Assembly: GCF_044324785.1 (NCBI RefSeq)
Contig: NZ_CP172129.1
Reading direction: 5' to 3' (one strand)
DNA: 64,000 nucleotides
Source of the DNA: Escherichia coli
GTDB taxonomy: Bacteria; Pseudomonadota; Gammaproteobacteria; Enterobacterales; Enterobacteriaceae
Program-made: the position numbers and the translations under genes
Notes under the pieces: generated by a model
What the model saw: only the letters and a program-made list of their open reading frames with translations
Told to the model about the DNA's origin: nothing
Databases searched by the model: none
Part shown: positions 13,559 through 51,138 of the stretch, piece by piece
How positions within the stretch are numbered: the stretch's first letter is position 1
Layout of the letters: each line of letters begins with the position of its first letter

Positions 13559-13561
13559 TAT

Positions 13562-25406: not shown

Positions 25407-26171
25407 GGCTGGTGATGAAGTCTCTTTATCAGGAGATCTGATCAAGAGACAGCCGCGCAGGGGGATTCACTATGCTGGATTCTTTTAACAAATTCTCCGC
25501 TAACCAAAAAATAGACTTTTTGCATTCGTAAATGCGTTAAGAGATAATTTTTAAAGTTCCATCAATCTCCCGGCCAGTTCGTCTCGCGGCATTACTCACT
25601 ATCCGCACAACTTCAGTAAGATCATGACTTTTTCAATCGTTATCTGTTGACCAAGCTTTGAAACCACTAGCGTCCCGTCAACCTGACCTGGAATCGTCTA
25701 GAACCGCCCATAGTTGTGAATTGGCTAGAGTGTGATGGAAAGCAACGCTAAACGACCTAGTCACACATTCTCTTTTCCCTAACAATGACCATTTAGTGAA
25801 ATAACGTATCCAAAATGATGACGTGAAAGCCTGATACTGGCAGCGAAAAGCCGAAAAAACTCACCTGGTCAGGAGCAAAAATCGGATTATTCGCCAACAG
25901 CGTAATATCAGCAGTAGTTCTCGACACGCTTGCGCTATAGACAGAGGATGAAACGCTGCTGGTCGGAGTTCTCTATACATTTTTGGCGACGGCAGAACCG
26001 CTCACCAATGCCTTAACGTCTATCAGCCTTCCGGTGAGTTGGAACAGCATGCTCAGCGTTTGCAAGATATTCTCCACGGTCTGTAGCAGCGTAGGTTTCA
26101 ATTTAAATATCCCCAGATAGCCCTCTGGGAGCTTCCCTTTTTATTAAGTTTTAATTACCGTTGCAATAGTT

Positions 26172-26200
26172 AAATGATATTGGTAATTATTATCATTAGC
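26172..26200. promoter_or_regulatory. Possible Fur box upstream of iroB
   Basis: AAATGATATTGGTAATTATTATCATTAGC resembles the Fur consensus GATAATGATAATCATTATC; about 440 bp from the iroB start, so weak. Confidence 0.3.
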
Positions 26201-26641
26201 ATTTGTGTCTGTGTTGTTTCTGGTAAGGCTGAAAGGGAACAAACATCGCCTGTACAACGGCGTTTTTACTTACAGACCAGCGAAGGCGAGACTATCAGGA
26301 TGATGCATCGTGTGTCTAAGAAATCACGGTTCTTTCCAGATTCGTTGTTCGGTCTAACACTGCACAAATGCGTCAGAACATCCCGGCGTAGCTGTCCGAC
26401 GCCATTTGGGCTGTTCAACAGGACAATGGCGCGTAAGCGTTAATGGAAGTGGGGATACGGAGTTCCCTGTTCACCTGTGTATGTCACGGAAAAGTCTCTG
26501 ACTGAGCTGTCCATAACGCTGGTGAAGCACAAATGGCGCAGCATCTGGTAAAGCAGGTTTAACGAAAAGTCGTGTCCTGCTGCTGGCATATGAGTGCGTC
26601 GACTGCCTGATTTAGATCGTCAAGCGGAGAGGGATTTTCTC

Positions 26642-27757
26642 ATGCGTATTTTGTTTGTAGGCCCGCCTCTCTATGGGCTGTTGTATCCTGTGCTGTCTCT
26701 GGCGCAGGCATTTCGCGTTAACGGTCATGAAGTGCTGATCGCCAGTGGAGGACAATTCGCACAAAAAGCGGCAGAGGCCGGGTTGGTGGTGTTTGACGCC
26801 GCACCCGGTCTGGATTCCGAAGCTGGTTACCGCCACCATGAGGCACAGCGGAAAAAAAGTAATATCGGAACCCAAATGGGCAACTTCTCATTCTTCAGCG
26901 AAGAAATGGCCGACCATCTGGTGGAGTTTGCCGGACACTGGCGGCCTGACCTCATCATCTACCCTCCGCTCGGAGTCATCGGGCCGCTGATTGCCGCCAA
27001 ATATGATATACCGGTCGTGATGCAAACCGTAGGCTTCGGCCATACCCCCTGGCATATCAAGGGTGTAACGCGTTCGCTCACGGACGCCTATCGTCGCCAC
27101 AATGTGGGGGCCACACCACGTGATATGGCCTGGATCGACGTAACACCGCCGAGTATGAGCATTCTGGAAAACGACGGTGAACCCATTATTCCGATGCAGT
27201 ACGTCCCGTATAACGGTGGCGCGGTGTGGGAACCATGGTGGGAGAGAAGGCCCGAGCGTAAACGTCTGCTGGTGAGTCTCGGCACTGTCAAACCGATGGT
27301 TGACGGCCTTGATCTAATCGCCTGGGTTATGGATTCTGCCAGTGAGGTCGATGCCGAGATCATCCTGCATATTTCAGCCAATGCGCGGTCCGATTTGCGC
27401 TCGCTGCCGTCAAATGTTCGCCTGGTTGACTGGATACCCATGGGTGTCTTCCTCAACGGCGCAGATGGTTTCATTCATCATGGCGGAGCAGGCAATACCC
27501 TGACAGCGCTACACGCTGGTATTCCACAAATCGTCTTCGGCCAGGGAGCCGATCGCCCGGTAAATGCCCGCGTTGTTGCCGAACGCGGCTGCGGGATTAT
27601 CCCTGGCGACGTCGGCCTGTCGAGTAACATGATCAATGCTTTCCTCAACAATCGCTCACTTCGCAAAGCCTCTGAAGAGGTAGCAGCGGAAATGGCGGCG
27701 CAACCCTGCCCAGGTGAAGTGGCGAAAAGCCTGATCACAATGGTACAGAAAGGGTAA
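26642..27757 (+). CDS. iroB: IroB, enterobactin C-glucosyltransferase (salmochelin synthesis)
   Basis: GT1-family glycosyltransferase (MRILFVGPPLYG… HHGGAGNT); first gene of the iroBCDE operon; start taken at MRILFVG. Confidence 0.9.
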   Translation: MRILFVGPPLYGLLYPVLSLAQAFRVNGHEVLIASGGQFAQKAAEAGLVVFDAAPGLDSEAGYRHHEAQRKKSNIGTQMGNFSFFSEEMADHLVEFAGHWRPDLIIYPPLGVIGPLIAAKYDIPVVMQTVGFGHTPWHIKGVTRSLTDAYRRHNVGATPRDMAWIDVTPPSMSILENDGEPIIPMQYVPYNGGAVWEPWWERRPERKRLLVSLGTVKPMVDGLDLIAWVMDSASEVDAEIILHISANARSDLRSLPSNVRLVDWIPMGVFLNGADGFIHHGGAGNTLTALHAGIPQIVFGQGADRPVNARVVAERGCGIIPGDVGLSSNMINAFLNNRSLRKASEEVAAEMAAQPCPGEVAKSLITMVQKG

Positions 27758-27770
27758 CCACTACACCTTC

Positions 27771-30700
27771 ATGATAATCATATGCCAGCACCCATCCAGG
27801 AGTCATGCATCCATAACAATGCGGGACCGGAGCGTGCTGGCTTTTTTGCGGAACGATCCGGCCAGTGGATCGTATTTTACAGACGGAGGAGGCTTAATGC
27901 CTGCGAATCACACTCCCACACCGGCTCAGTCATGGATAGTTCGCCTAGCGCGCGTGTGCTGGGAACGTAAGAAACTTAGTGTCATCGTGGTGGTAGCGTC
28001 AGTATCGACTATTTTGCTGGCTGCGCTGACGCCACTGCTGACAAGACAGGCTGTGAATGACGCACTGGCGGGCAATCCGGCCCGCCTGCCGTGGCTGGCC
28101 TGCGGGTTACTGTTGATCGCTTTTTTTGATTTCATCGGTAACTATGTGCGCCGTGGTTATGCCGGGATGCTCTCACTCTGGGTGCAGCATACCCTCAGAG
28201 GACGGGTATTCGACAGTATTCAGAAACTTGACGGCGCAGGCCAGGATGCGCTGCGCACCGGGCAGGTGATTTCACGGACCAACAGCGATCTGCAGCAGGT
28301 GCATACCCTGCTGCAGATGTGCCCGGTGCCGCTGGCAGTGTTCACTTATTACATTGCCGGCATTGCCGTGATGCTGTGGATGTCCCCTGCCATGACGCTT
28401 ATCGTCGTGTGCGTACTGGTATGCCTGGCGATCACCGCGCTTCGTGCGCGTCGTAGGGTCTTCGCGCAAACCGGGCTGGCCTCGGACCAACTGGCGAATC
28501 TCACCGAACATATACGCGAGGTGCTGGCACAGATCTCAGTGGTAAAATCCTGTGTGGCAGAGATGCGTGAAACGCACTGGCTCGATAGGCAGTCGCGGCA
28601 GATTGTGCGTGTACGCATCGGTGCGGTTATCTCGCAGGCGATGCCTGGGGCCACCATGCTGGCGCTACCGGTGCTCGGGCAAATCGTCCTGCTGTGCTAC
28701 GGCGGGTGGTCGGTCATGCACGGGCGGATCGATCTCGGTACCTTCGTTGCATTCGCCAGCTTCCTCGCGATGCTGACCGGGCCAACCCGCGTACTGGCAT
28801 CGTTTCTGGTTATCGCACAGCGCACTCAGGCGTCCGTGGAGCGGGTGTTTGCACTGATCGACACCCGTTCACAGATGGAGGACGGGACGGAGTCGATTAA
28901 CAGTCAGGTTGTCGGACTGGAACTGGAGAATATGAGCTTTGACTACCACCATGGCGACAGACATATCCTCAGCAATATCTCCTTTTCCCTGCGCGCCGGT
29001 GAAACCGTGGCGGTGGTGGGCGCATCGGGTTCAGGAAAATCGACCCTGTTGATGCTACTGGCGCGTTTTTATGATCCCTGCTCCGGAAAGATATGGCTCA
29101 ACACCAGCGAAGGCCGACAAAATCTTCGCGATATCAGACTGGAGGCGCTTCGTCGCCGGGTAGGCATCGTATTTGAAGATGCTTTTCTGTTTGCCGGTAC
29201 GGTGGCGGAAAATATCGCCTATGGCCACCCTCAGGCAACGGCGGACGACATTCGCCGTGCGGCAGCTGCTGCAGGAGCCAGCGATTTTATTAACGCCCTG
29301 CCGAAAGGCTTCGATAGCCTGTTAACCGAACGGGGTACGAATCTTTCCGGCGGGCAGAGGCAGCGAATAGCGCTGGCGCGGGCGCTCATTACTGCACCGG
29401 ACGTGTTAATCCTGGATGATACTACCTCAGCGGTTGATGCTGTTACGGAAGCGGAGATTAATACCGCGCTGGGTCGCTATGCTGACGAAGGGCATATGCT
29501 GCTGGTGATTGCCCGACGGCGTTCAACACTTCAGCTAGCCAGCCGGGTTGTGGTGCTGGATAAGGGCCGTATGGTGGATACCGGAACCCCGGCAGAACTT
29601 GAAGCGCGCTGTCCGGCGTTCCGCGCACTGATGACCGGCGACAGCGATTTTCTGGCCACGTCCCACAATAGCCACAACGAATTGTGGCCGGCTGAACCAG
29701 CGACACAAGACGATGTAACGGATACGGGGGATAAAGGTTTTGTCGCCCGTATGACCCGCGTACCGGAAAATGCAGTACAGCAGGCGCTGGCCGGTAAAGG
29801 TCGCAAAGTCACGTCACTACTGAAGCCTGTGGCGTGGATGTTCGTCATCGCCGCTCTGCTGATCGCACTCGATTCTGCGGCAGGCGTAGGGGTACTGATA
29901 CTGTTGCAGCACGGCATTGACTCCGGTGTCGCCGCAGGCGATATGTCGATCATCGGCCTCTGTGCCCTGCTCGCCCTGTGCCTGGTCATTGTGGGCTGGT
30001 GCAGTTATTCTCTGCAGACGGTCTTCGCCGCCAGAGCGGCGGAATCAGTTCAGCATTCGGTGCGCTTGCGCAGCTTCGGCCATATGCTGCGTCTTGGACT
30101 CCCCTGGCATGAAAAGCATGCCGATTCGCGTCTTACCCGCATGACCGTTGATGTGGACTCTCTCGCCCGCTTTCTGCAAAACGGCCTTGCCGGTGCGGCC
30201 ACCAGTCTGGTGACGATGTTCGCAATCGCCGCCACCATGTTCTGGCTCGACCCGTTCCTGGCGCTGACGGCATTAAGCGCAGTGCCAGTGGCCGCACTGG
30301 CAACCATGATTTATCGCCGCCTCAGTACCCCTGCTTATGCACAGGCACGGCTGGAAATAGGCAAAGTCAACAGCACCCTGCAGGAAAAAGTCTCTGGCCT
30401 GCGTGTCGTGCAATCGCATGGTCAGCAGGAACTGGAGGGCGCCCGGCTGCGCGCGTTATCGGAGCGTTTCCGCGCAACCCGTGTGCGAGCACAAAAATAC
30501 CTTGCAGTCTATTTTCCGTTCCTGACATTCTGCACCGAGGCCTCCTATGCCGCTGTTCTGTTAGTGGGAGCTTCGCAGGTCGCCGCTGGAGAAATGACTG
30601 CCGGGGTACTGGCGGCTTTCTTCCTGTTGCTGGGGCAATTCTATGGGCCAGTGCAGCAGTTATCAGGGATTGTCGACGCCTGGCAGCAGGCGACAGCCAG

Positions 30701-31556
30701 CGGCAAACATATTGATGAACTACTGGCGACAGAAGGCACTGAGAACCTCGGGTCCTCTTCGGTCCTCCCTGTCACCGGTGCACTGCATCTTGATGAGGTC
30801 ACGTTCAGTTATCCCGACAGTCACGAGCCAGCTCTGAACAAACTTACCCTGACGATCCCAGAGGGAATGGTTGTCGCGGTCGTCGGTCGCAGCGGTGCGG
30901 GTAAGTCGACGCTGATTAAGCTGATTGCCGGGTTGTATTTCCCCACGCACGGCAACATCAGAATCGGTGTGCAAATGCTCGATGATGCCTCGCTCACTGA
31001 GTATCGTCGCCAGATTGGGCTTGTCGATCAGGATGTAGCACTGTTTAGTAGTGATATTGCAGAAAACATTCGTTATTCACGGCCATCCGCCACCAATGAA
31101 GACGTTGAAATTGCCTCACAGCGGGCAGGGCTGTATGAGATGGTGTGCAATCTGCCGCAGGGATTCCGGACACCGGTGAATAACGGCGGAGCCGATCTGC
31201 CCGCAGGTCAGCGCCAGTTGATTGCGCTGGCCCGCGCGCAACTGGCGAATGCCCACATCCTGCTGCTCGACGAAGCCACGTCATGTCTGGATCGCACATC
31301 CGAAGAACGACTGATGTCATCGTTAACAGATGTCGTGCATGCCGGGAAGCACTCGGCGCTGATTGTTGCACATCGTCTGACCACCGCGCAACGCTGCGAT
31401 CTGATTGCCGTTATTGATAAGGGGTTACTTGCGGAATACGGAACCCACGAACAGCTGTTATCTGCGGGCGGCCTCTATACCCGCTTATGGCATGACAGCG
31501 TCAGCAGTACTGCTCTCCATCGCCAGCACAACATGAAGGAGGAAACCCCGGGATAG
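27771..31556 (+). CDS. iroC: IroC, ABC exporter with two fused transmembrane/ATPase halves (salmochelin export)
   Basis: Two Walker A motifs (GASGSGKST, GRSGAGKST) and two ABC signatures (LSGGQRQR, LPAGQRQL); an alternative start at MPANHTP (27897) is possible. Confidence 0.9.
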   Translation: MIIICQHPSRSHASITMRDRSVLAFLRNDPASGSYFTDGGGLMPANHTPTPAQSWIVRLARVCWERKKLSVIVVVASVSTILLAALTPLLTRQAVNDALAGNPARLPWLACGLLLIAFFDFIGNYVRRGYAGMLSLWVQHTLRGRVFDSIQKLDGAGQDALRTGQVISRTNSDLQQVHTLLQMCPVPLAVFTYYIAGIAVMLWMSPAMTLIVVCVLVCLAITALRARRRVFAQTGLASDQLANLTEHIREVLAQISVVKSCVAEMRETHWLDRQSRQIVRVRIGAVISQAMPGATMLALPVLGQIVLLCYGGWSVMHGRIDLGTFVAFASFLAMLTGPTRVLASFLVIAQRTQASVERVFALIDTRSQMEDGTESINSQVVGLELENMSFDYHHGDRHILSNISFSLRAGETVAVVGASGSGKSTLLMLLARFYDPCSGKIWLNTSEGRQNLRDIRLEALRRRVGIVFEDAFLFAGTVAENIAYGHPQATADDIRRAAAAAGASDFINALPKGFDSLLTERGTNLSGGQRQRIALARALITAPDVLILDDTTSAVDAVTEAEINTALGRYADEGHMLLVIARRRSTLQLASRVVVLDKGRMVDTGTPAELEARCPAFRALMTGDSDFLATSHNSHNELWPAEPATQDDVTDTGDKGFVARMTRVPENAVQQALAGKGRKVTSLLKPVAWMFVIAALLIALDSAAGVGVLILLQHGIDSGVAAGDMSIIGLCALLALCLVIVGWCSYSLQTVFAARAAESVQHSVRLRSFGHMLRLGLPWHEKHADSRLTRMTVDVDSLARFLQNGLAGAATSLVTMFAIAATMFWLDPFLALTALSAVPVAALATMIYRRLSTPAYAQARLEIGKVNSTLQEKVSGLRVVQSHGQQELEGARLRALSERFRATRVRAQKYLAVYFPFLTFCTEASYAAVLLVGASQVAAGEMTAGVLAAFFLLLGQFYGPVQQLSGIVDAWQQATASGKHIDELLATEGTENLGSSSVLPVTGALHLDEVTFSYPDSHEPALNKLTLTIPEGMVVAVVGRSGAGKSTLIKLIAGLYFPTHGNIRIGVQMLDDASLTEYRRQIGLVDQDVALFSSDIAENIRYSRPSATNEDVEIASQRAGLYEMVCNLPQGFRTPVNNGGADLPAGQRQLIALARAQLANAHILLLDEATSCLDRTSEERLMSSLTDVVHAGKHSALIVAHRLTTAQRCDLIAVIDKGLLAEYGTHEQLLSAGGLYTRLWHDSVSSTALHRQHNMKEETPG

Positions 31557-31659
31557 TTACTGGACACGTAATGTATTAAAAACACAGTCAGAAGCGGCGG
31601 TACCGTGAATAGCCGCTTTAATTATTTATACTGACATCCTTAATTTTTAAAGAGTATGA

Positions 31660-32889
31660 ATGCTGAACATGCAACAACATCTCTCTGCTATCGCCAGCCT
31701 GCGCAACCAACTGGCAGCGGGCCACATTGCTAACCTTACTGACTTCTGGCGCGAAGCTGAGTCGCTGAATGTTCCTCTTGTGACGCCAGTCGAAGGAGCG
31801 GAAGATGAGCGAGAAGTGACCTTTCTGTGGCGCGCCCGACATCCTCTGCAGGGCGTTTATCTGCGTCTGAACCGGGTGACGGATAAAGAGCACGTAGAAA
31901 AAGGAATGATGAGCGCCCTTCCCGAAACGGATATCTGGACACTGACACTGCGTTTACCCGCAAGTTACTGCGGCTCCTATTCGCTGCTGGAAATCCCCCC
32001 CGGCACTACGGCTGAGACGATTGCACTGTCCGGAGGCCGTTTTGCCACCCTTGCCGGAAAGGCCGATCCGCTAAACAAAATGCCGGAGATCAACGTTCGG
32101 GGAAACGCAAAGGAATCAGTGCTGACACTTGATAAAGCTCCCGCCCTGTCGGAATGGAACGGCGGCTTCCACACCGGACAACTGCTTACCTCCATGCGCA
32201 TTATCGCCGGGAAATCTCGCCAGGTTCGGCTCTATATTCCGGATGTTGATATTTCTCAGCCCCTCGGGCTGGTCGTGCTGCCCGATGGTGAAACCTGGTT
32301 TGATCACCTTGGCGTATGCGCGGCAATTGACGCCGCCATAAATAATGGGCGCATCGTGCCCGTGGCTGTACTGGGCATTGACAACATTAATGAACATGAA
32401 CGCACTGAGATACTCGGCGGGCGCAGCAAACTGATAAAGGATATCGCCGGACATCTGCTGCCGATGATTCGCGCTGAACAACCGCAGCGTCAGTGGGCAG
32501 ACCGTTCGCGCACAGTGCTGGCCGGGCAGAGCCTCGGCGGGATCAGTGCGCTAATGGGGGCTCGTTACGCACCGGAAACGTTCGGTCTGGTGCTCAGCCA
32601 CTCTCCTTCAATGTGGTGGACGCCAGAAAGAACCAGTCGACCAGGCTTGTTCAGCGAAACCGATACCTCATGGGTGAGTGAGCATCTGCTTTCTGCCCCA
32701 CCGCAGGGCGTACGTATCAGCCTGTGCGTGGGATCGCTGGAAGGTTCGACAGTGCCTCACGTTCAGCAGCTTCACCAGCGGCTGATTACCGCTGGCGTCG
32801 AAAGCCATTGCGCAATCTACACCGGTGGTCACGATTACGCATGGTGGCGCGGTGCACTGATTGACGGGATTGGTTTACTACAGGGTTGA
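31660..32889 (+). CDS. iroD: IroD, cytoplasmic salmochelin/enterobactin esterase (Fes-like)
   Basis: 409-aa ORF with esterase motif GQSLGG; position within the iro operon. Confidence 0.85.
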   Translation: MLNMQQHLSAIASLRNQLAAGHIANLTDFWREAESLNVPLVTPVEGAEDEREVTFLWRARHPLQGVYLRLNRVTDKEHVEKGMMSALPETDIWTLTLRLPASYCGSYSLLEIPPGTTAETIALSGGRFATLAGKADPLNKMPEINVRGNAKESVLTLDKAPALSEWNGGFHTGQLLTSMRIIAGKSRQVRLYIPDVDISQPLGLVVLPDGETWFDHLGVCAAIDAAINNGRIVPVAVLGIDNINEHERTEILGGRSKLIKDIAGHLLPMIRAEQPQRQWADRSRTVLAGQSLGGISALMGARYAPETFGLVLSHSPSMWWTPERTSRPGLFSETDTSWVSEHLLSAPPQGVRISLCVGSLEGSTVPHVQQLHQRLITAGVESHCAIYTGGHDYAWWRGALIDGIGLLQG

Positions 32890-32973
32890 GTTGACCCACA
32901 AACACTTTCAGGAAACGGTACAGACTTCCTGAATAAATCAAATAGTCACCTGCGGAAAAGGAATAATCATCAG

Positions 32974-33930
32974 ATGTATGCCCGCGAGTATCGCTCAACA
33001 CGCCCGCATAAAGCGATTTTCTTTCATCTTTCTTGCCTCACCCTTATCTGTAGTGCGCAAGTTTATGCGAAGCCGGATATGCGGCCACTGGGGCCGAATA
33101 TAGCCGATAAAGGCTCCGTGTTTTACCATTTCAGCGTCACCTCTTTCGACTCTGTCGATGGCACACGCCATTATCGGGTATGGACGGCCGTGCCGAATAC
33201 AACCGCACCGGCATCGGGTTACCCGATTTTATATATGCTTGACGGTAACGCAGTTATGGATCGCCTGGATGACGAACTGCTCAAACAATTGTCAGAAAAA
33301 ACACCGCCAGTGATCGTGGCTGTCGGGTATCAGACCAACCTCCCTTTCGATCTCAACAGCAGGGCTTACGACTATACGCCAGCAGCAGAAAGCAGAAAAA
33401 CAGATCTCCACTCAGGGCGTTTTAGCCGTAAGAGTGGTGGCAGCAACAACTTCCGCCAGTTACTGGAAACGCGTATTGCCCCAAAAGTGGAACAGGGACT
33501 GAATATCGATCGGCAACGCCGCGGCTTATGGGGGCACTCCTACGGCGGCCTCTTCGTGCTGGATTCCTGGCTGTCCTCCTCTTACTTCCGGTCGTACTAC
33601 AGCGCCAGCCCGTCGTTGGGCAGAGGTTATGATGCTTTGCTAAGCCGCGTTACGGCGGTTGAGCCTCTGCAATTCTGCGCCAAACACCTGGCGATAATGG
33701 AAGGCTCGGCGACACAGGGTGATAACCGGGAAACGCATGCTGTCGGGGTGCTGTCGAAAATTCATACCACCCTCACTATACTGAAAGATAAAGGCGTCAA
33801 TGCCGTATTTTGGGATTTCCCCAACCTAGGACACGGGCCGATGTTCAATGCCTCCTTTCGCCAGGCACTGTTAGATATCAGTGGTGAAAACGCAAATTAC
33901 ACAGCAGGTTGTCATGAGTTAAGCCACTAA
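32974..33930 (+). CDS. iroE: IroE, periplasmic salmochelin esterase
   Basis: 318-aa ORF with signal peptide and esterase motif GHSYGG. Confidence 0.85.
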   Translation: MYAREYRSTRPHKAIFFHLSCLTLICSAQVYAKPDMRPLGPNIADKGSVFYHFSVTSFDSVDGTRHYRVWTAVPNTTAPASGYPILYMLDGNAVMDRLDDELLKQLSEKTPPVIVAVGYQTNLPFDLNSRAYDYTPAAESRKTDLHSGRFSRKSGGSNNFRQLLETRIAPKVEQGLNIDRQRRGLWGHSYGGLFVLDSWLSSSYFRSYYSASPSLGRGYDALLSRVTAVEPLQFCAKHLAIMEGSATQGDNRETHAVGVLSKIHTTLTILKDKGVNAVFWDFPNLGHGPMFNASFRQALLDISGENANYTAGCHELSH

Positions 33931-33974
33931 ACACTGCCCGCTTTTACGCGGGCAGTACGCCTGAAACACTACGA

Positions 33975-36152
33975 TCAGAATGATGCGGTAACTCCGGCAT
34001 AGTAAGCCCGGCCTGGCTCGTTATAGGTATTCGCCCCTTCAGAAGATCGGAAGATCTGTTTATTGAGGATATTACTGACGCCGACATTAAGACGCAGATT
34101 TTTATTAATATCGTAATTGAAGTTCGTCCCCACCAGTGAATAAGCGCCCAGCTCTTTACCTGACAGACCGCCAGTATCTTCACTGCGGGTTTCCGCATGA
34201 GTACGCGGTTTTTGTCTGCCATATAACGTCCAGTTGACGCTGGCAGAAAACGCCTGGGTGATGGTCCAGTTAAGCGAGTTATTGATAGTATATTTCGGGA
34301 TGACCGACAGAGGATTACCGGTGTCTTTTTGCTCCGAAGTGATCATCCATGTGGCATTGGTATTCCAGTTCAGACGATCTTTCACCAGTGGGAAAGACAT
34401 ACTGGCTTCGATACCGTCCACCAGAGCTTTCCCGCCATTCTGCCACTTGAGGATATATGCGCCTGAAGCGGTTTGCCCGATAACGTTATCCCCGGCCACG
34501 ATCTTATTCTGGTAATCATTGCGGAAGTAGGTCACACTTGCGTGGTAATCTTCCCAGGTGAACTCCAGCCCAATTTCTTTATTGACGCTGATTTCCGGAT
34601 CGAGATCTTTATTACCGATCAGGTAGCACCCGCCTGATGTAATATCTTTTGGACAGCCATTGCCTTTCGAGTAGAGCAGATAGCCTTCACTGGATTGATA
34701 CAGGTTTGGGGCTTTAAAGGTTCGGGCAACCCCTGCTTTGACTTTGAAATAATCGCCCAATTCCTGCGAAAGATTCAGACTGGGGCTGAAGTTCCCGCCG
34801 GAGTCGCTGAGATAATCAAAGCGCAGGCCGGGAATGATATTCGTGCCAGGAACCGGCTCAATGTTATCTTCAATATACAGCGCACTGATTTGAGAATGAT
34901 TTTTACTGCTGCGATCCGCAGCAGAGCCAGAAATACCGCTGATATCACTGTCATTCACCGTCAGGCTGGTAGAGGAAGGATCATCGAGCTTATCGCGGTT
35001 CCACTCTGCACCAACGGTCAGCGTTTGATCAACCATCACATTCAAAGGAATATTAAGCTCGCCGCTGGTTCGCCAGGAACTCAGGCGATTGGTCGTAAAC
35101 TTTTCACCCGCTAAAATACGCCCTTCACCACCGCCGGATAATCCTTCATTCATGCGGGTATTATTGGTTTTCTCGTAATAAACACCAAAGCGACTTTGTC
35201 CCCAGTCCCAGATACCATTATGCGTAATGCCATAATTCTGTCGGTACAGGCGGTTCGTCTCTTTGCCGGATTTTGCCAGGCTTTCGGTAACTGCACTGGA
35301 AGAACTGTTTTGCGTATCGCCCGCATAGATATTCCCCTGGCGGCTATATCCGGCTTCGAAATCGAGAATCTGCTGCGGATTTAATTTCCACGAGACAACG
35401 CCGTTAATATCTTTGTTACGTACCCCTTCATGCCCGGCTGCGTTTTTCGTACCGACCGGAGAATTAATATCCCAACTGTCAGCATCCGTTTTATTCAGGT
35501 TACCATACAAACGCGTGGTAAGAGCATTACCAGCCAGAGGCCCACTAAGGCTGAAATTGGCGCGACGCGTAGCGCCCTCATCGCTACTTTCCGGCTGATT
35601 GGTGTATAACGACAGCGAACCGTGCCAGTCGTTGGTGGGACGTTTGGTAATGATGTTCACCACCCCCCCGGCTGCCCCCGAACCGTAGCGCGCCGCCGCA
35701 GGGCCGCGGATCACTTCAATACGCTCAACCTGTTCCGGTGGCACCCAGTTGGTGTCACCGCGGGTATCACGCTCTCCACGCCAGCTATAACGCACGGAGT
35801 TACGTGACGTCACCGGTACACCATCAATTAAAATTAAGGTGTTTTCCGGCCCCATACCACGAATATCGATCTGGCGGTTGTTACCGCGTGTGCCCGAGGC
35901 GCTATTGCCGGTAAGATTGACGCCAGGCATTTTACGAATAATATCTGAAAGGTCGTTTACCGGAGGGGTCTTTTTAATATCCTCGCTGGTAATAACCGAC
36001 ACGCCCGGCTGCTGTTTTAATACCTGCTCAGCGGTGGCTTCCACCACCAGAGTCTCGTCATTATCATCGTCGGAGGATTTGGCTACTGATACCTGGCTAT
36101 TCAACCCAACCAGGAGCACAGTTAGCGACCAGAGGATTTTGTTAATTCTCAT
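33975..36152 (-). CDS. iroN: IroN, TonB-dependent outer-membrane receptor for salmochelin/catecholate siderophores
   Basis: 725-aa ORF with signal peptide, TonB box (…DETLVVEA…), plug and barrel, ending in the terminal aromatic motif …GVTASF. Confidence 0.9.
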   Translation of the reverse strand: MRINKILWSLTVLLVGLNSQVSVAKSSDDDNDETLVVEATAEQVLKQQPGVSVITSEDIKKTPPVNDLSDIIRKMPGVNLTGNSASGTRGNNRQIDIRGMGPENTLILIDGVPVTSRNSVRYSWRGERDTRGDTNWVPPEQVERIEVIRGPAAARYGSGAAGGVVNIITKRPTNDWHGSLSLYTNQPESSDEGATRRANFSLSGPLAGNALTTRLYGNLNKTDADSWDINSPVGTKNAAGHEGVRNKDINGVVSWKLNPQQILDFEAGYSRQGNIYAGDTQNSSSSAVTESLAKSGKETNRLYRQNYGITHNGIWDWGQSRFGVYYEKTNNTRMNEGLSGGGEGRILAGEKFTTNRLSSWRTSGELNIPLNVMVDQTLTVGAEWNRDKLDDPSSTSLTVNDSDISGISGSAADRSSKNHSQISALYIEDNIEPVPGTNIIPGLRFDYLSDSGGNFSPSLNLSQELGDYFKVKAGVARTFKAPNLYQSSEGYLLYSKGNGCPKDITSGGCYLIGNKDLDPEISVNKEIGLEFTWEDYHASVTYFRNDYQNKIVAGDNVIGQTASGAYILKWQNGGKALVDGIEASMSFPLVKDRLNWNTNATWMITSEQKDTGNPLSVIPKYTINNSLNWTITQAFSASVNWTLYGRQKPRTHAETRSEDTGGLSGKELGAYSLVGTNFNYDINKNLRLNVGVSNILNKQIFRSSEGANTYNEPGRAYYAGVTASF

Positions 36153-36247
36153 ACCTATTCCCTAATAAATGCCTAACTTAAAATGTTTGATCGTTAAGCT
36201 CACATCCTTGCCAGATATTTTTTACTGCCATTATTGTTTTTATATAA

Positions 36248-36267
36248 GAATGATAATTAATATCATT
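36248..36267. promoter_or_regulatory. Fur box in the iroN promoter
   Basis: GAATGATAATTAATATCATT, about 100 bp upstream of the iroN start, close match to the Fur consensus. Confidence 0.6.
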
Positions 36268-37006
36268 TAGCAAAAAAAAAAGCAATCCCTCACAAGATAA
36301 ATATATCGATTTTTCATAAATATCAAATTGATATATAACATATGTTTTTTATTTCATTGCACTTGTCGATCATCGGGAATTTTGTCACAATTTCTCACGG
36401 ATAGTGTTCACATTGTTTCTGACCTGCATTTCAGGCGCGGGCGCTGCTTATGTATATAAGGGCCTGTGGTCGACGAATCAGCATAATCAGATCTTCCTGC
36501 GAGCAATTTCTTTCAGCGTATCAGGCAGCACTATCGGATTATCTACGTGCGTTTTTGATTCACATTGTGTGTGAAACTTCATACATCATGATTCGCTTTC
36601 CCTACTCAGTTCTGATGATTGTTTTTTATTCTATTAACACGGAGTTAAGATTCTACCCTCGGTGTCCTCATTATTAATGAGGAATGCTACCTATCTAAAA
36701 ACTGACCGAAACTTTGGGGCATCCCTGGAGGTTTCCAAGGAGAAAAAGGTGACAGTGATAGTGCCACATTGTGAGGAAATTCCTGAGAAACTCCTGGTTC
36801 ACACACATAATTCAGGAGTTTGCCATAGATAGTAACCAATTGTTTTATATTTTAAGACCATTAAATACGCGGCTACGATAGCGCTTTATATAATCATAAA
36901 CTGTAGAGATAAAATATCTGCTTCTCTGATAACACTAATTGAGTGTCTTAAACTAAGTAATTTCATTTTTCCCCCTTTAAAAGCAATATATGTGCAATAG
37001 TTGAAG

Positions 37007-38041
37007 TTAAAGCTGTGCTGCCAGAGTTGATAATAATTGTTCTGTCTGTTGCCATGATATGCATTCATCAGTAACAGACTGACCATACTCTAGCGGAAAA
37101 CTATCGGATTGTTTTCCATCTTGTAAAAAGCTTTCCACCATAATGCCAGCTACATATCCTGGTATTTTTTTCCGATTATCTATAACTTGACGTGCAACGG
37201 AAATTTGCCGTTTAGCCACTTTACCGCTATTACCATGGCTACAATCAATTATCAGACGATGGTTAATACCCTCATCATGCATTAATTTCACTGCCTTAGT
37301 TATATCAGACAAACCATAGTTAGGTTCTCTACCTCCACGTAATATTAGATGTCCATGTGGATTGCCATCGGTTAATAGTGTAGATATACTATTTGTTAAA
37401 GATGTCATATATACAATATGTTGTTCACGGGCTGCAATAATAGCGTCAATAGCTAAGTTAATATTTCCATCAGTACTGTTTTTAAATCCAACTGGACAAT
37501 GTAAACCAGACGCAAGTTGACGATGCGTTTGTGATTCAGTGGTTCTGGCACCAATAGCACCCCAACATATTAAATCAGCAATATAGGGAGTAAGAAAAGG
37601 ATCGAGGAATTCTGTAGCGGTTGCGACACGCATCGTTGTGATTGAAGACAAACACTGGCGAGCATATCGTATCCCTTTCTCAACATCATAACTTCCATTT
37701 AGATCAGGATCGTGCATTATTCCCTTCCAGCCTTTACGGGTTCGAGGTTTCTCAAAATAAGTGCGCATTACAATGTACATTTTCGATAAGTACTTATTCT
37801 GTAATACGAACAATCGCTTCGCATAATCAACTGCGGCCTGAACGTCATGGATTGAGCATGGACCAACAATCACAAGTAAGCGAGGATCTTTTCCCAGCAA
37901 AATATTCGCTATAATATCTCGTTGCAGAGAGATCCATGTTACGGTTTCTTCCGATACTGCGATTTCTTTATGAATCTCGCCCACAGTGGGTAAACTGCCA
38001 AGCAACTTCCCGCGGTAGATTAATTTACTAGCTGACTGCAT
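37007..38041 (-). CDS. Class I 3-deoxy-7-phosphoheptulonate (DAHP) synthase, AroG/AroF/AroH-like
   Basis: 344-aa ORF with DAHP synthase I features (…LLVIVGPCSIHD…IDCSHGNS…). Confidence 0.8.
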   Translation of the reverse strand: MQSASKLIYRGKLLGSLPTVGEIHKEIAVSEETVTWISLQRDIIANILLGKDPRLLVIVGPCSIHDVQAAVDYAKRLFVLQNKYLSKMYIVMRTYFEKPRTRKGWKGIMHDPDLNGSYDVEKGIRYARQCLSSITTMRVATATEFLDPFLTPYIADLICWGAIGARTTESQTHRQLASGLHCPVGFKNSTDGNINLAIDAIIAAREQHIVYMTSLTNSISTLLTDGNPHGHLILRGGREPNYGLSDITKAVKLMHDEGINHRLIIDCSHGNSGKVAKRQISVARQVIDNRKKIPGYVAGIMVESFLQDGKQSDSFPLEYGQSVTDECISWQQTEQLLSTLAAQL

Positions 38042-38244
38042 CTTGTCTCCTAAAAGCGCTATTTCAGACCATCAGTTGCACACAGTAGATGATAATGATA
38101 ATCATTTACTGTATAATTGGCAATATATGGGGATTCATAGTCATTTCTGAGATAATATACGTTAGGCCTTCTCTCCCGTACGGAAATCACTTGTTTTCCG
38201 TAAATTACCTGAATCTTAATCCCTGAGCTGCGGCTAGCTGTGGA

Positions 38245-38582
38245 ACTCACAAAAGCTGACCGGGCCGTGGCACAGCCTCTCTGCTGGCAGAACAGCGTAC
38301 TGCAGAAGTCGTCGTACTGCCGCTGGTCCCGGCATCAGGTCTGCCCGCAGATGGCACTTCTGCCACTGATCTGCCGGTGGAGCTGAACGGCATGACATAT
38401 CAGGCCTGCCGTGGGGATTTTGTGGTGCGCCTCGACGGCAGCACCTGTCTGCAGTTATAGAATAAAGAAGGCGGGGAGGTACGCAGGGAGGGCGATCCGC
38501 TGGAAGTGGCGTAGTGGCTGTAGGCCTGTAATGATGCAGGAATAGAAGTTCGTGTACAGGTTAATGAAAGCATCACCCCGTA
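38245..38582 (+). pseudogene. Decayed copy of the 3' half of the gene at 47720-48310, with in-frame stops
   Basis: DNA aligns with 47955-48310 at high identity but carries stop codons (…CAGTTATAGAATAAA…, …GTGGCGTAGTGGCTGTAGGCC…). Confidence 0.6.
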
Positions 38583-38600
38583 AAAACATGCCGGCACGGT

Positions 38601-38909
38601 TTACACATCATTCCATGGTGGCAGCCGGTTAACTTTCCTGCGCCACCAGTGGAAAGAGGCCATGAGCAGTCCGAACAAAAAACCACTCGTGATACTTATA
38701 ATAATGGCCTCACCTGCTACCATTCCTGACGGCCCCCAGTACATAAACCACATTGCACATCCCCAGGAAATACCCCATAAGCCCCCCATCAGCAGCGTAA
38801 CCTGCCAGAACGGCATAAAGGGCAATGGCGGAAGCCGGATACCCAGCCGCCAGAGAATACGCAGCAGAGGAGGAGCATAATTACTCCGCCACATCTTTTT
38901 GCTGTCCAT
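38601..38909 (-). CDS. Small membrane protein, paralog of 48330-48587
   Basis: 102-aa ORF with hydrophobic segments; 28 aa longer than the paralog at 48330-48587. Confidence 0.45.
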   Translation of the reverse strand: MDSKKMWRSNYAPPLLRILWRLGIRLPPLPFMPFWQVTLLMGGLWGISWGCAMWFMYWGPSGMVAGEAIIISITSGFLFGLLMASFHWWRRKVNRLPPWNDV

Positions 38910-39076
38910 CAGGGCAATTGCCCGGGCTTTTTTTGCTCAAAAGTCACAGGAGCACCTCCGTTCCATGATGTAAACGTGACACAACTTATTGTTATTGATT
39001 ATTATTATCATACCGTGATTATGTTGTCATGCACCTGTACACTGATAAAAGAAAGGGAGAACAGGAGGCTGGCTGA

Positions 39077-39384
39077 ACAACCAATCCGTTCGTCCAGTTC
39101 AATGGCGGCTATCAGGTTCTGCTCCGCAATGTACTCACGAATGCGCTTCCTGTCCTGGCTGGTCAGCATGGTCCAGAATATCTCCATCATTTACCGGCGA
39201 CTTTCCTGCTCATTTCATCCCGCCATGCAGCAGCGGAAGATTCGACCATGTCATGGGGAAGCACATCGCCGCGCTCGAGTTGCTGACGTCCTGCCTCAAC
39301 CTGGTCACGGAACCAGGTATTATGCTGCCGTTCCACGGTCTGGCGCATAAAATCCCGGATTAACTGAGAGCCATTACGGTCCAT
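39077..39384 (-). pseudogene. Remnant of the ParE/RelE-type toxin and RHH antitoxin pair (toxin truncated after ~40 codons; antitoxin frameshifted at its 5' end)
   Basis: DNA aligns with 52190-52580; the toxin ORF runs into unrelated sequence; a 1-bp difference (GCAGGGCCAT versus GCAGCGGCCAT) removes the antitoxin start. Confidence 0.65.
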
Positions 39385-39742
39385 GCTTTTTGCAGGGCCA
39401 TAAAAGCATCCTTCAGTTCAGCGTCAATTCTTAAACTCATATTAACCTGTGCCATTTATCACCCCGTCATTACCACGTATATACACAGTATATAACGATT
39501 CAGATATCGTCACTAGGATATGCCGCGCCAGCGGCATGGAAGGCGGCACTCCGCTGTTTCATATGATACCGCCGAAGCCCGATGTAAGCCGCTACAGTCG
39601 TCCGAAAGTCACCAGCCTCCTCCCCCCTGCCGTCATCCGTGCATCAGCTATGCACTGAGTATGCCTGCCCTTCCCTAGAGAATCCTGCTAGGCTTGCCAC
39701 ACTGATATATCTTGACTTTATGTAAACGATATGACACTTTAA

Positions 39743-39761
39743 CATGATAATGATTACCATT
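39743..39761. promoter_or_regulatory. Fur box upstream of cvaA
   Basis: CATGATAATGATTACCATT in the cvaA promoter region. Confidence 0.5.
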
Positions 39762-40065
39762 CTCTTTTAATATACAGAGAAACTAGGAAATAGATGAATG
39801 AGTTATGTTACTTTAATATTCTCTGACAATAACCTAAATCAGTTAGATTATTGTCATTTAATAAATAATGACATTCTTTCATCATAAATAAAAAGACTAT
39901 TGTTTATAATATTGTTCTCAGCATTATATGATTATTTATCCTGATAACTCTCCTATGCTGTATGTTTATATGATTTTCCTTGAAACATATAATGCAAATT
40001 TTCGATTTATTTTCCATCATTAATCCAGATAAACAACAAACTAATAGTATGCAAGGAGACATTAT

Positions 40066-42109: not shown

Positions 42110-43166
42110 GGCTTTGTTGAATAAATCGAACTTTTGCTGAGTTGAAGGATCAGATCACGTATCTTCCCGACAACGCAGACCGTTCCGTGGCAAAGCAAAA
42201 GTTCAAAATCACCAACTGGCCCACCTACAATAAAGCCCTCATCAACCGTGGCTCCATAACTTTCTGGCTGGATGATGAAGCTATTCAGGCCTGGTATGAG
42301 TCAGCAACACCTTCTTCACGAGGCAGACCTCAGCGCTATTCTGACCTTGCCATCACTACTGTGCTGGTCATTAAACGCGTATTCAGGCTGACCCTGCGGG
42401 CTGCGCAGGGCTTTATTGATTCCATTTTTTCTCTGATGAACGTTCCGCTACGCTGCCCGGATTACAGCTGTGTCAGCAGGCGGGCAAAGTCGGTTAATGT
42501 CAGTTTCAAAACGCCCACCCGGGGTGAAATCGCACACCTGGTAATTGATTCCACCGGGCTGAAGGTCTTCGGTGAAGGCGAGTGGAAAGTCAAAAAGCAT
42601 GGCCAGGAACGCCGCCGTATCTGGCGTAAGCTGCATCTCGCCGTTGACAGTAAAACACATGAAATCATCTGCGCTGACCTGTCGCTGAACAACGTTACGG
42701 ACTCAGAGGCCTTCCCCGGGTTAATCCGGCAAACCCACCGGAAAATCAGGTCAGCCGCCGCCGATGGCGCTTACGATACCCGGCTATGTCACGATGAACT
42801 GCGGCGTAAGAAAATCAGCGCGCTTATCCCTCCCCGAAAAGGTGCGGGTTACTGGCCCGGTGAATATGCAGACCGTAACCGTGCAGTGGCTAATCAGCGA
42901 ATGACCGGGAGTAATGCGCGGTGGAAATGGACAACAGATTACAACCGTCGCTCGATAGCGGAAACGGCGATGTACCGGGTAAAACAGCTGTTCGGGGGTT
43001 CACTGACGCTGCGTGACTACGATGGTCAGGTTGCGGAGGCTATGGCCCTGGTACGAGCGCTGAACAAAATGACGAAAGCAGGTATGCCTGAAAGCGTGCG
43101 TATTGCCTGAAAACACAACCCGCTACGGGGGAGACTTACCCGAAATCTGATTTATTCAACAAAGCC
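42110..43166 (+). mobile_element. IS903 (IS5 family), 1057 bp, flanked by 9-bp target-site duplication CTTCTCAGA
   Basis: Terminal inverted repeats GGCTTTGTTGAATAAATCG… at 42110 and …TTTATTCAACAAAGCC ending at 43166; direct repeats CTTCTCAGA at 42101-42109 and 43167-43175. Confidence 0.85.
42142..43110 (+). CDS. IS903 transposase
   Basis: 322-aa ORF filling the element; DDE-type transposase. Confidence 0.8.
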   Translation: MKDQITYLPDNADRSVAKQKFKITNWPTYNKALINRGSITFWLDDEAIQAWYESATPSSRGRPQRYSDLAITTVLVIKRVFRLTLRAAQGFIDSIFSLMNVPLRCPDYSCVSRRAKSVNVSFKTPTRGEIAHLVIDSTGLKVFGEGEWKVKKHGQERRRIWRKLHLAVDSKTHEIICADLSLNNVTDSEAFPGLIRQTHRKIRSAAADGAYDTRLCHDELRRKKISALIPPRKGAGYWPGEYADRNRAVANQRMTGSNARWKWTTDYNRRSIAETAMYRVKQLFGGSLTLRDYDGQVAEAMALVRALNKMTKAGMPESVRIA

Positions 43167-44664: not shown

Positions 44665-44976
44665 TTATAAACAAACATCACTAAGATTATTTGGACTCCA
44701 ATTACACAATCTTCCCGCAGCATAGTTCCATGCTTCTGAAGGTATCCCTTCGGGTTTTTGCTTAATTGTTCCCCCTAAACCGGATGGAGACATTGCAGGA
44801 TTAGGTTTGTGAGTGGATGCATAGTCATATATTGCACCTCCAGCCACACCCCCAGCAGCTGCTCCAATTCCTCCTGCAACAAATTGCCCGGATAGTGTTC
44901 CTATAGCCATCGCAATATCACGCCCTGAAGCACCACCAGAAACAGAATCTAATTCATTTAGAGTCAGAGTTCTCAT
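44665..44976 (-). CDS. cvaC: CvaC, colicin V (microcin V) precursor with double-glycine leader
   Basis: 103-aa ORF MRTLTLNELDSVSGGASGRD… matching CvaC. Confidence 0.9.
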   Translation of the reverse strand: MRTLTLNELDSVSGGASGRDIAMAIGTLSGQFVAGGIGAAAGGVAGGAIYDYASTHKPNPAMSPSGLGGTIKQKPEGIPSEAWNYAAGRLCNWSPNNLSDVCL

Positions 44977-45190
44977 ATGATCTCCTTTTTATCTTATCGG
45001 ATATTGAATAATAATTATCACCAACAAAGTAACATATTGCAGACATTAATGCAGAGAAGCAAAATGTATGCATGGATAAAAAGTCCTTTCCTCTAAAAAC
45101 ACAATCATATATAGCTAATGCAATATATATTGCGGTGGCATTTATTATAAATGCAAATAACAACTCTAATTTTGTTCTTTTTCTATCCAT
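44954..45190 (-). CDS. cvi: Cvi, colicin V immunity protein
   Basis: 78-aa hydrophobic ORF directly upstream of and overlapping cvaC. Confidence 0.85.
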   Translation of the reverse strand: MDRKRTKLELLFAFIINATAIYIALAIYDCVFRGKDFLSMHTFCFSALMSAICYFVGDNYYSISDKIKRRSYENSDSK

Positions 45191-45237
45191 TACTTTTTAT
45201 CCCATTACTTTCTATCCCATTACCACACAAACACTAA

Positions 45238-45256
45238 CGATAATGATTATCGTTAA
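45238..45256. promoter_or_regulatory. Fur box in the cvi-cvaC promoter
   Basis: CGATAATGATTATCGTTAA about 50 bp upstream of the cvi start. Confidence 0.6.
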
Positions 45257-45308
45257 CATAGTCAAGAGTGAAGGGTAGGAGGCCCTCAACCCCCTATAAG
45301 GGGTCCGC

Positions 45309-47723: not shown

Positions 47724-48310
47724 CTCAGAGCCGCCGACCGTCGCCACTGCAGCGAAGAATGCTGATTGTGCTGGCTGCCCTTGATGAAAAACGGCCAGGA
47801 CCCGTGCTGACGCGGGACATAGAACGGGTGCTGGAGCGAAGCGGGGAAGCCCCAGTCTACGGGCCAAACCTGCGCGCCTCCTGCCGTCGTCTGGAGGATG
47901 CCGGCTGGCTGCGTACCCTGCGCGCTCCGAACCTGCAGCTGGCAGTGGAGCTGACGGACGTCGGCCGGGCCGTGGCACAGCCTCTGCTGCTGGCAGAACA
48001 GGACCGCCTCCGGGCAGAACAGCGTGCGGCAGAAGTCGTCGTACTGCCGCTGGTCCCGGCAGCAGGTCTGCCCGCAGATGGCACTTCTGCCACTGATCTG
48101 GCGGTGCAGCTGAACGGCATAACGTATCAGGCCTGCCGTGGGGATTTTGTGGTGCATCTCGACGGCAGCACCTGTCTGCAGTTATGGAATAAAGAAGGCA
48201 GGGTGGTACGCCGGGAGGGCGATCCGCTGGAAGTGGCGCAGTGGCTGCAGGCCTGTCACGATGCAGGAATGGAGGTTCGCGTACAGATAAATGAAAGTGC
48301 CGCTCCGTAA
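47720..48310 (+). CDS. Hypothetical protein (196 aa), GC-rich
   Basis: Coupled to the upstream ORF; a decayed second copy exists at 38245-38582. Confidence 0.45.
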   Translation: MTQSRRPSPLQRRMLIVLAALDEKRPGPVLTRDIERVLERSGEAPVYGPNLRASCRRLEDAGWLRTLRAPNLQLAVELTDVGRAVAQPLLLAEQDRLRAEQRAAEVVVLPLVPAAGLPADGTSATDLAVQLNGITYQACRGDFVVHLDGSTCLQLWNKEGRVVRREGDPLEVAQWLQACHDAGMEVRVQINESAAP

Positions 48311-48329
48311 GAACACGCCTGTGCACGGT

Positions 48330-48587
48330 TTACACATCATCCCATGGTGGCAGCCGGTTAACTTTCCTGCGCCCCCAGTAGATAAACCACATTGCACATC
48401 CCCAGGAAATGCCCCATAAGCCCCCCGTCAGCACCGTGACCTGCCAGAACGGCATAAAGGGTAATGGCGGAAGCCGGATACCCAGCCGCCAGAGAATACA
48501 CAGAAGAGGAGGGGCATAATTGCTCCGCCACATCTTTTTGCTGTCCATCAGGGCAATGGCCCGGGCTTTTTTCTGCTCAAAGGTCAC
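48330..48587 (-). CDS. Small membrane protein (85 aa), paralog of 38601-38909 with a 28-aa in-frame deletion
   Basis: Hydrophobic ORF; aligns with 38601-38909. Confidence 0.4.
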   Translation of the reverse strand: MTFEQKKARAIALMDSKKMWRSNYAPPLLCILWRLGIRLPPLPFMPFWQVTVLTGGLWGISWGCAMWFIYWGRRKVNRLPPWDDV

Positions 48588-48715
48588 AGGAGCACCTCCG
48601 TTCCATGATGTAAACGTGACACAGCTTATTGTTATTGATTATTATTATCATGCTGTGGTTATGTTGTCATGCATCAGTACACTGACAAAAGTGCAAAAGA
48701 AAGGAAAACAGGCAG

Positions 48716-50993: not shown

Positions 50994-51024
50994 ACTGCTT
51001 ACGTATGTGGATACATATACAGTA
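50994..51024. promoter_or_regulatory. Probable SOS operator (tandem overlapping LexA boxes) in the cia promoter
   Basis: On the cia strand: TTGACA …17 nt… TACTGTATATGTATCCACATACGTAAGCAG, containing CTGT-N8-type half sites. Confidence 0.55.
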
Positions 51025-51138
51025 TTAATTTATTAAGGAGAAAATGGCATGTCAAGATTTAATGATAGTGATTATCATTAACATGAAGTGATTTTACGTC
51101 TGGATAACGTAAATGATTGCGGTATACAGGCCAGGCGG

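Follow-up and report, generated by a model that had tools for sequence, protein, structure and literature searches.

Strong candidate Fur boxes in the conserved virulence region of an Escherichia coli ColV-Ia plasmid

Gene content of the window

The stretch of Escherichia coli DNA analysed here, hereafter the window, comprises 64,000 nucleotides of contig NZ_CP172129.1 (assembly GCF_044324785.1). Megablast against plasmid records identified it as the beginning of an IncFIB virulence plasmid of the ColV/ColIa type, with several records, pCFS3313-1 among them, collinear with the window from position 1. At the level of sequence, these comparisons confirm that the window represents the conserved ColV-Ia virulence region, and its annotation is borne out. 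The genes, together with the candidate regulatory features discussed below, are collected in Table 1.

Table 1. Genes, candidate Fur boxes and other features of the window, in order of position
Feature	Coordinates	Strand	Remarks
RepFIB	1-978		
mig-14	2686-3588	-	
hlyF	3657-4766	-	
ompT	5199-6152	-	
Weak Fur-like sequence upstream of etsA	10321-10345	+	19-mers 10321-10339 and 10327-10345; 89-113 bp upstream of etsA
etsABC	10434-14932	+	etsA ATG at 10434
iss	23203-23493		
iroB Fur array	26176-26206	+	2-3 overlapping 19-mers; ~440-466 bp upstream of ATG
iroB leader/insert	26207-26641	+	~400-430 bp; between Fur-box promoter region and iroB ribosome binding site
iroBCDE	26642-33927	+	iroB ATG at 26642
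iroN	33975-36152	-	ATG at 36152
iroN double Fur box	36246-36270	-	19-mers 36246-36264 and 36252-36270, 6-bp offset; 94-118 bp upstream of ATG
ssbL, DAHP synthase (pS88 ORF123, CFT073 c1220)	37007-38041	-	ATG at 38041
ssbL promoter Fur box	38085-38109	-	on -10; best 19-mer starts at 38091; 24.0 bits
ybaA/DUF6404 gene, copy A	38601-38894	-	
ybaA/DUF6404 copy A Fur box	38991-39015	-	on -10 of ATGACA-18-AATAAT, 39030-39001; 20.2 bits
cvaA promoter Fur box	39740-39764	+	best 19-mer 39746-39764; 302 bp upstream of cvaA start
cvaA	40066-41340	+	TTG start at 40066
cvaB	from 41333		split by IS903-like element
IS903-like insertion in cvaB	42110-43166	+	1057 bp; 9-bp target duplication; BLAST against pCFS3313-1
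cvaC	44665-44976	-	overlaps cvi, downstream of it
cvi	44954-45190	-	ATG at 45190
cvi promoter Fur box	45233-45257	-	19-mers 45239-45257 and 45233-45251
ybaA copy B Fur box	48631-48655	-	between divergent ybaA and imm; 20.2 bits
Colicin Ia immunity gene (imm)	48716-49051	+	ATG at 48716
cia (colicin Ia)	49073-50953	-	ATG at 50953
cia promoter	51005-51082	-	Fur box 51058-51082, ending 3 bp upstream of -35 TTGACA (51055-51050)

Methods

Fur sites were sought with a symmetrised 19-bp matrix built from 13 K-12 sites, namely 12 footprinted regions and the fhuA promoter. The footprint coordinates were those of Table 3 in Chen et al. 2007 (PMC2189734), shifted to NC_000913.3. The consensus of this matrix is the classical Fur consensus, GATAATGATAATCATTATC. 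In a leave-out test of the training set, the true K-12 sites scored from 9.3 to 22 bits, the weakest being tonB (9.3), fhuF2 (9.8) and fecA (11.1). The level of matches expected by chance was estimated from global dinucleotide shuffles and from shuffles within local blocks of 200 bp, the latter keeping the local AT-richness.

For expression, we relied on the study of Lemaitre et al. 2012 (PMC3438092), whose qRT-PCR covered 88 ORFs of plasmid pS88 under four conditions, namely LB plus an iron chelator, serum, urine and in vivo. Of the 12 sites examined, 11 have the identical 145-bp context in the window and in pS88; at the remaining one, iroN, a 45-bp core is identical. Because the site sequences are identical, the pS88 chelation transcriptome is directly applicable to the window. 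For occupancy, we used the work of Banerjee et al. 2020 (PMC7157518), who mapped Fur by ChIP-seq in CFT073. Additionally, a scan for IroN with one genome per species returned 59 loci. Five of these are true iro loci, from Klebsiella, two Salmonella subspecies, Yokenella and Citrobacter; most of the 59 proved to be FepA-like receptors of ~60-70% identity and were set aside as not belonging to iro.

Results

Eight strong Fur boxes

In the matrix scan, eight clusters of the window reached 18 bits or more, where 0.02 would be expected from the global shuffles and 0.10 from the local-block shuffles, and the most found in any of 200 shuffles was one. All eight are intergenic, with a start codon 45-470 bp downstream. 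Their scores, 24.1 bits for cvaA, 24.0 for ssbL, 22.1 for cvi, 20.8 for iroB, 20.2 for each of two ybaA copies, 19.8 for cia and 19.0 for iroN, all fall in the score range of E. coli Fur sites known from footprints. Counted against the classical consensus, 17 of 19 positions match at both cvaA and cvi, 16 at iroB, 15 at iroN and 13 at the weak site upstream of ets. By pattern matching, the boxes of cvi, cvaA, ssbL and ybaA lie on sigma-70-like hexamers, and that of cia adjoins the -35 hexamer; at iroN and iroB, the same pattern search found no strict sigma-70 pattern over the box. Thus the sites exist, exceed chance and in part overlap promoter-like sequence, and, as described below, some are also conserved across genera.

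The initial annotation had reported close matches to the Fur consensus upstream of iroN, cvaA and cvi, and had asked for a Fur matrix scan. All three boxes are present, as are the two weaker candidates that it added at iroB and ets, the best 19-mers of all five lying 0-4 bp from where they had been placed; the scores of the three stand far above those of the shuffled sequences. That list was nevertheless incomplete, as it missed ssbL, both ybaA copies and cia.

A further three sites have intermediate scores, at 23970 (15.8 bits), at 5453 inside ompT (15.4 bits) and at 3643 (15.2 bits). These are within chance, which would supply ~1.4 clusters at 14 bits or more. We rejected them as Fur operators on their chance-level scores and on the behaviour of the neighbouring genes in pS88, which are not induced by chelator, and we regard them as non-functional or unproven. 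Among other pS88 genes, the values with chelator were 0.48 for ompT, 1.0 for hlyF, 1.1 for mig-14 and 0.28 for iss (PMC3438092). Overall, seven of the eight high-scoring sites accord with the iron induction seen in pS88, and none of the low-scoring ones does.

The iroN box

Upstream of iroN, two overlapping 19-mers score 19.0 and 16.7 bits. The first, AAGAATGATAATTAATATC (36246-36264), is exactly the motif beneath the Fur ChIP-seq peak at CFT073 iroN (Banerjee et al. 2020, PMC7157518). The double box recurs in S. arizonae, S. diarizonae, Yokenella and Citrobacter, that is, in four of four loci with an upstream region, where it lies at -110 to -118. Sequence likeness across these loci ends ~15 bp 5' of the box, and the leader 3' of the box is strongly conserved. 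A Fur box at iroN had also been predicted before, in ExPEC O78 (PMC4145685).

In a CFT073 fur mutant, iroN is up 137-fold, but only 16-fold without RyhB (PMC7157518), and activation of the iroN leader by RyhB has been described (Balbontin et al. 2016, as cited in PMC7157518). With chelator, iroN of pS88 rises 2.9-fold, which is not significant, and in vivo it rises 29-fold (PMC3438092). The low induction ex vivo is plausibly due to the need of iroN for RyhB activation.

The ssbL box

The promoter pattern of ssbL consists of a -35 hexamer, TTGCCA (38123-38118), and a -10 hexamer, TATCAT (38100-38095), at a spacing of 17. Its box is unchanged in a ~90%-identical chromosomal copy located in a microcin H47 island, where the flanks have many substitutions. 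The gene was first known as ORF123 of pS88 and was later named ssbL; its product raises siderophore production via the shikimate pathway. With chelator, ORF123 is induced 355-fold, and its Fur box was remarked by the authors (PMC3438092). The CFT073 counterpart, c1220, lies at a Fur ChIP peak and is up 147-fold in the fur mutant (PMC7157518).

Colicin V: the cvaA and cvi boxes

At cvaA, the box of 24.1 bits is accompanied by a second match of 11.9 bits at -6 bp. It overlaps a sigma-70-like ATGACA-18-TACCAT (39731-39760), and an AT-rich leader lies between box and gene. In pS88 with iron chelator, cvaA is induced 26-fold and cvaB 12.9-fold (PMC3438092).

The cvi box, with 19-mers of 22.1 and 16.8 bits, spans the spacer and -10 of a promoter pattern 47 bp upstream of the cvi ATG (-35 TTGACT, 45265-45260; -10 TATCGT, 45242-45237; 17-bp spacing). 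Both ColV operons are stated to be Fur-repressed in PMC6071977, which cites Boyer and Tai 1998. In pS88 with chelator, cvaC rises 22-fold, but cvi stands at 0.84-fold, which is not significant (PMC3438092). Inside cvi there is a weak Fur-like site of 10.1 bits (45007-45025); a search for an internal cvaC promoter found no strict sigma-70 pattern near it. As a side observation, the 0.84-fold value for cvi in pS88 runs against reading its box as a Fur operator, though the downstream cvaC is induced.

The element that splits cvaB carries a 322-aa transposase ORF (42142-43110), and the annotation in a relative is IS903B. With cvaB split, this plasmid is probably unable to export ColV, judging by the gene structure, and Fur control of that export is probably without consequence, or vestigial, here.

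The ybaA copies and cia

The two ybaA boxes belong to a duplicated segment, the copies of which are 91-94% identical. With chelator, the pS88 gene pS88118, tentatively assigned to ybaA copy A, rises 4.0-fold and the pS88106 ybaA 5.25-fold, neither of which is significant (PMC3438092).

The Fur 19-mers of cia score 19.8 bits (at 51064) and 16.6 bits. The cia promoter shows the layout of the colicin I type, in which the Fur box is upstream and a single LexA-like box, CTGTATATGTATCCAC, is downstream of the -10 hexamer; the LexA-like sequence reads TACTGTATATGTATCCACAT at 51024-51005. Fur and LexA both control ColIa/Ib (PMC3879352), and in pS88 cia is up 5.1-fold with chelator and 21-fold in serum (PMC3438092).

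The iroB box and the ~400-bp insert

The iroB array had been noted in the initial annotation as a weaker candidate. The site is there, but the label is not apt: its 19-mers score 20.8 bits (26176-26194), 20.4 bits (26182-26200) and, for a third, 10.7 bits, which makes it as strong as the three main boxes of that list. The reverse complement of 26182-26200 is GCTAATGATAATAATTACC, an exact copy of the ChIP-seq motif at CFT073 iroB (PMC7157518). The whole iro module (25809-36337) is 98.3% identical to that of CFT073, from which it follows that both iro boxes travel with the island.

The array is ~440 bp from iroB because an insert of ~400 bp separates the box from the ribosome binding site. In Salmonella and Yokenella, which lack the insert, the box is at -62 to -71; in Citrobacter, it is at -493 to -499, and in CFT073 the spacing is likewise ~440 bp. 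The insert is carried by the window, CFT073, Citrobacter MGH106 and a Klebsiella MAG. It has no match in Rfam, and a search for a coding gene found short ORFs only, with protein poorly conserved across E. coli, Citrobacter and Klebsiella. We also considered the insert as a structured RNA, a proposal left unsupported by a single-sequence fold z-score of -1.09; in a consensus fold of three sequences, the covariation term was just -1.08 kcal/mol, with no real covariation.

A more ambitious reading would combine the iroB insert as a regulatory leader, split control of cvaC and cvi, and ybaA as a Fur-regulated partner of colicin I. Its parts are as follows. The insert might subject salmochelin synthesis to a second tier of control. 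The divergence between cvaC and cvi could reflect either a promoter within cvi that responds to iron or a constitutive immunity transcript of separate origin. Finally, ybaA, present in two copies with a 20-bit box on the -10 hexamer, might be an unrecognised partner of the colicin I modules. We consider this reading unlikely.

Somewhat less likely still is the proposal that E. coli iroB has a separate promoter of its own within the insert and that the distal box serves the c1255-like gene only. The distance from box to iroB is unusually long, no plus-strand sigma-70 pattern was detected at the iroB box, and in CFT073 a divergent ORF under the same ChIP peak is derepressed 8.6-fold (PMC7157518). 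However, no further Fur site between the distal box and iroB reaches 11 bits, and iroB is the most derepressed gene of the locus, marked in CFT073 by just one ChIP peak, which lies over the distal box, and up 512-fold in the fur mutant of that strain (PMC7157518), and 72-fold with chelator in pS88 (PMC3438092). The same box moreover lies 62-71 bp from iroB in Salmonella, and the c1255-like ORF (25973-26101, minus strand) is frameshifted in the window. We favour the distal array as the operator of iroB, one that probably also serves the divergent c1255-like ORF.

The ets pump

The initial annotation had further suggested a weaker Fur box upstream of etsA, and with it possible iron control of the Ets efflux pump. 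The two 19-mers found there score 10.1 and 10.0 bits, and since chance gives ~13 clusters per window at 10 bits or more, the site is indistinguishable from chance. Could it nonetheless be a true low-affinity Fur operator, placing EtsABC within the iron regulon of the plasmid? Such scores do lie among those of the weakest K-12 training sites, tonB, fhuF2 and fecA, the position 89-113 bp upstream of etsA would suit an operator, and etsABC was up in chicken serum in one study of APEC O1, as reported in the pS88 paper (PMC3438092). Against this, no plus-strand promoter pattern overlaps the site, and in pS88, whose ets upstream sequence is identical, etsA stands at 0.49-fold and etsC at 1.05-fold with chelator, with no rise in serum, urine or in vivo (PMC3438092). 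A low-affinity operator is therefore very unlikely, and we judge the sequence not functional. The published pS88 data show no iron-dependent change in expression, the outcome that the initial annotation had itself named as telling against its proposal. Thus etsABC is outside the Fur set of the plasmid and drops out of the predicted iron regulon. The wider suggestion of joint iron control stands for salmochelin and colicin V, on published results with identical sequences, and falls for ets.

Discussion

The strong sites are very probably ordinary operators of the E. coli Fur regulon. Hardly credible for them is the reading of the matches as by-products of AT-rich intergenic DNA, whether promoter or H-NS-type, rather than specific Fur operators: Fur boxes are AT-rich and palindromic, local shuffles do yield ~13 clusters at or above 10 bits against 35 observed, a low-score excess which suggests that composition or structure inflates weak matches, and second matches at a 6-bp offset are partly automatic because the motif is hexamer-based, but the composition-keeping shuffles come nowhere near eight clusters of at least 18 bits, the boxes are kept across genera where their flanks are not (iroN and iroB, and ssbL in its chromosomal copy), CFT073 ChIP-seq peaks lie on the identical iroN and iroB 19-mers, and identical sequences show strong iron-dependent induction in pS88. 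This reading has failed for the eight strong sites and stands only for those of up to ~16 bits, ets included.

Fur occupancy and the dependence on iron and fur are taken here from the literature, and we infer the same for this plasmid. If the strong sites act as ordinary Fur operators, Fe2+-Fur dimers would, under iron sufficiency, bind the overlapping arrays of 19-bp sites on or beside the -35 and -10 hexamers, and bound Fur would block RNA polymerase. Upon iron limitation, Fur would depart and the genes would be transcribed. The set under such control would comprise iroN, iroBCDE, ssbL, cvaAB, cvi-cvaC, cia (jointly with LexA) and, probably, ybaA, where SsbL is a DAHP synthase feeding the synthesis of catecholate siderophore. 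The Fur sites move with their gene modules, and the iro boxes belong to an island common to the Salmonella and CFT073 chromosomes.

Comparison with known systems

That Fur controls the salmochelin, colicin V, colicin Ia and SsbL genes of ColV plasmids is already known, either published or at textbook level. The finding is real and mechanistically ordinary; it has little weight as discovery and practical worth for annotation.

The nearest system is pS88 (NC_011747), in which the order is the same: mig-14, hlyF, ompT, etsABC, iss, iroBCDEN, ssbL, cvaAB, cvaC-cvi and the cia module. The window differs in the IS903-like insertion in cvaB and in the upstream flank of iroN, which is slightly different outside the 45-bp core, possibly in the A-run beside the box. 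The iroBCDEN locus of the UPEC strain CFT073, which ChIP-seq places directly under Fur (PMC7157518), has both Fur 19-mers and the iroB spacing of the window. There, however, the locus is chromosomal, in a pathogenicity island, and the c1255-like ORF is intact, whereas that of the window is frameshifted.

The iroA locus of Salmonella enterica has orthologous double boxes. Its iroN box is equally distant from the gene (-110 to -116), and the sequence of its iroB box, GATATTGGTAATTATTATCATT, is nearly that of the window. Salmonella and Yokenella have iroB without the ~400-bp insert; E. coli, Citrobacter and Klebsiella have it with the insert. For colicin I, the cia layout of the window agrees with the published Fur and LexA control of Ia/Ib (PMC3879352), and no difference from it was detected.

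Lastly, the prototype of a footprinted Fur operator is that of iucA on pColV-K30, the operon of which, iuc, is absent from the window. The iucA footprint covers 103 bp with 13 predicted overlapping sites ("sequence walkers"), whereas the arrays of the window consist of 2-3 19-mers; the architecture of overlapping 19-bp sites at a 6-bp offset (Chen et al. 2007) is the same in both.

Colicin V and colicin I genes

The colicin V export gene cvaB is split by an IS903-like element, whose transposase ORF of 322 aa occupies 42142-43110. To judge from the sequence, this insertion probably leaves the colicin V exporter of the plasmid non-functional, despite which its Fur-controlled promoter is still intact. 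In pS88, a ColV-Ia plasmid with a cvi/cvaC promoter sequence identical to the one found here (44954-45257 region), iron chelation induced cvaC 22-fold, whereas the overlapping upstream immunity gene cvi was not induced (0.84-fold; PMC3438092). A weak Fur-like site (45007-45025), scoring 10.1 bits with a symmetrised 19-bp matrix built from 13 K-12 Fur sites, falls inside the cvi gene, at 31-49 bp before the start codon of cvaC.

The cvi leader (~45190-45225, minus strand) carries a motif of ~16 bp, AGTAATGG(G)ATA(G/A)AA, three times in tandem immediately upstream of the cvi start codon, which is included in the array; copies 1 and 2 form ATG-GGA-stop mini-ORFs.

The colicin I module, yacA-yacB-yacC-cia-imm-ybaA, is found at ~48-52.7 kb. 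A remnant copy without the colicin, consisting of yacA, a truncated yacB and ybaA (DUF6404), is placed between ssbL and cvaA and is 91-97% identical to the module. Both ybaA copies retain a 20.2-bit Fur box on the -10.

Features identified in the window
Feature	Coordinates	Strand	Details
STnc490 Hfq-binding sRNA	23761-23882	minus	Rfam match, 90.8 bits (gathering threshold 56)
ORF divergent from iroB	25973-26101	minus	frameshifted to 42 aa
iroB upstream segment, ~400 bp	26207-26641		Fur-box promoter region to iroB ribosome binding site
Duplicated segment, remnant	38286-39566
Duplicated segments, colicin I module	48013-48691; 52186-52691
IS903-like element in cvaB	42110-43166		1057 bp; 9-bp target duplication

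Middling Fur-like sites

Two further Fur-like 19-mers of ~15 bits each lie at the hlyF/mig-14 junction (3643-3661) and inside ompT (5453-5471). Chance alone would give the window ~1.4 clusters scoring 14 bits or more; mig-14, hlyF and ompT of pS88 were not induced by chelator (PMC3438092). The STnc490 match sits within a lambda-like Rz/Rz1/bor(iss) remnant, with a middling Fur-like pair ~90 bp upstream, at 23970 (15.8 bits) and 23976 (14.4 bits). The neighbouring pS88 ORFs 130-132 likewise showed no chelator induction (PMC3438092).

Salmochelin gene leaders

The 5' leader of iroN (36153-36245), from the Fur box to the ATG, contains a block, CTGGCAAGGATGTGAGCTTAACGA...TTAGGGAATAGGT, that shows very strong conservation in five genera, a pattern in keeping with published work on the activation of iroN mRNA by RyhB.

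The Fur box of iroB is shared with the divergent ORF, whose counterpart in the uropathogenic strain CFT073 is intact (99 aa) and is probably c1255, a gene derepressed 8.6-fold in a CFT073 fur mutant (PMC7157518). Within the iroB upstream segment, an Rfam search returned no match, folding gave no significant signal and no convincing ORF was found. Citrobacter and Klebsiella carry the segment, as does E. coli both on the plasmid and in CFT073, whereas the Salmonella and Yokenella loci are without it.
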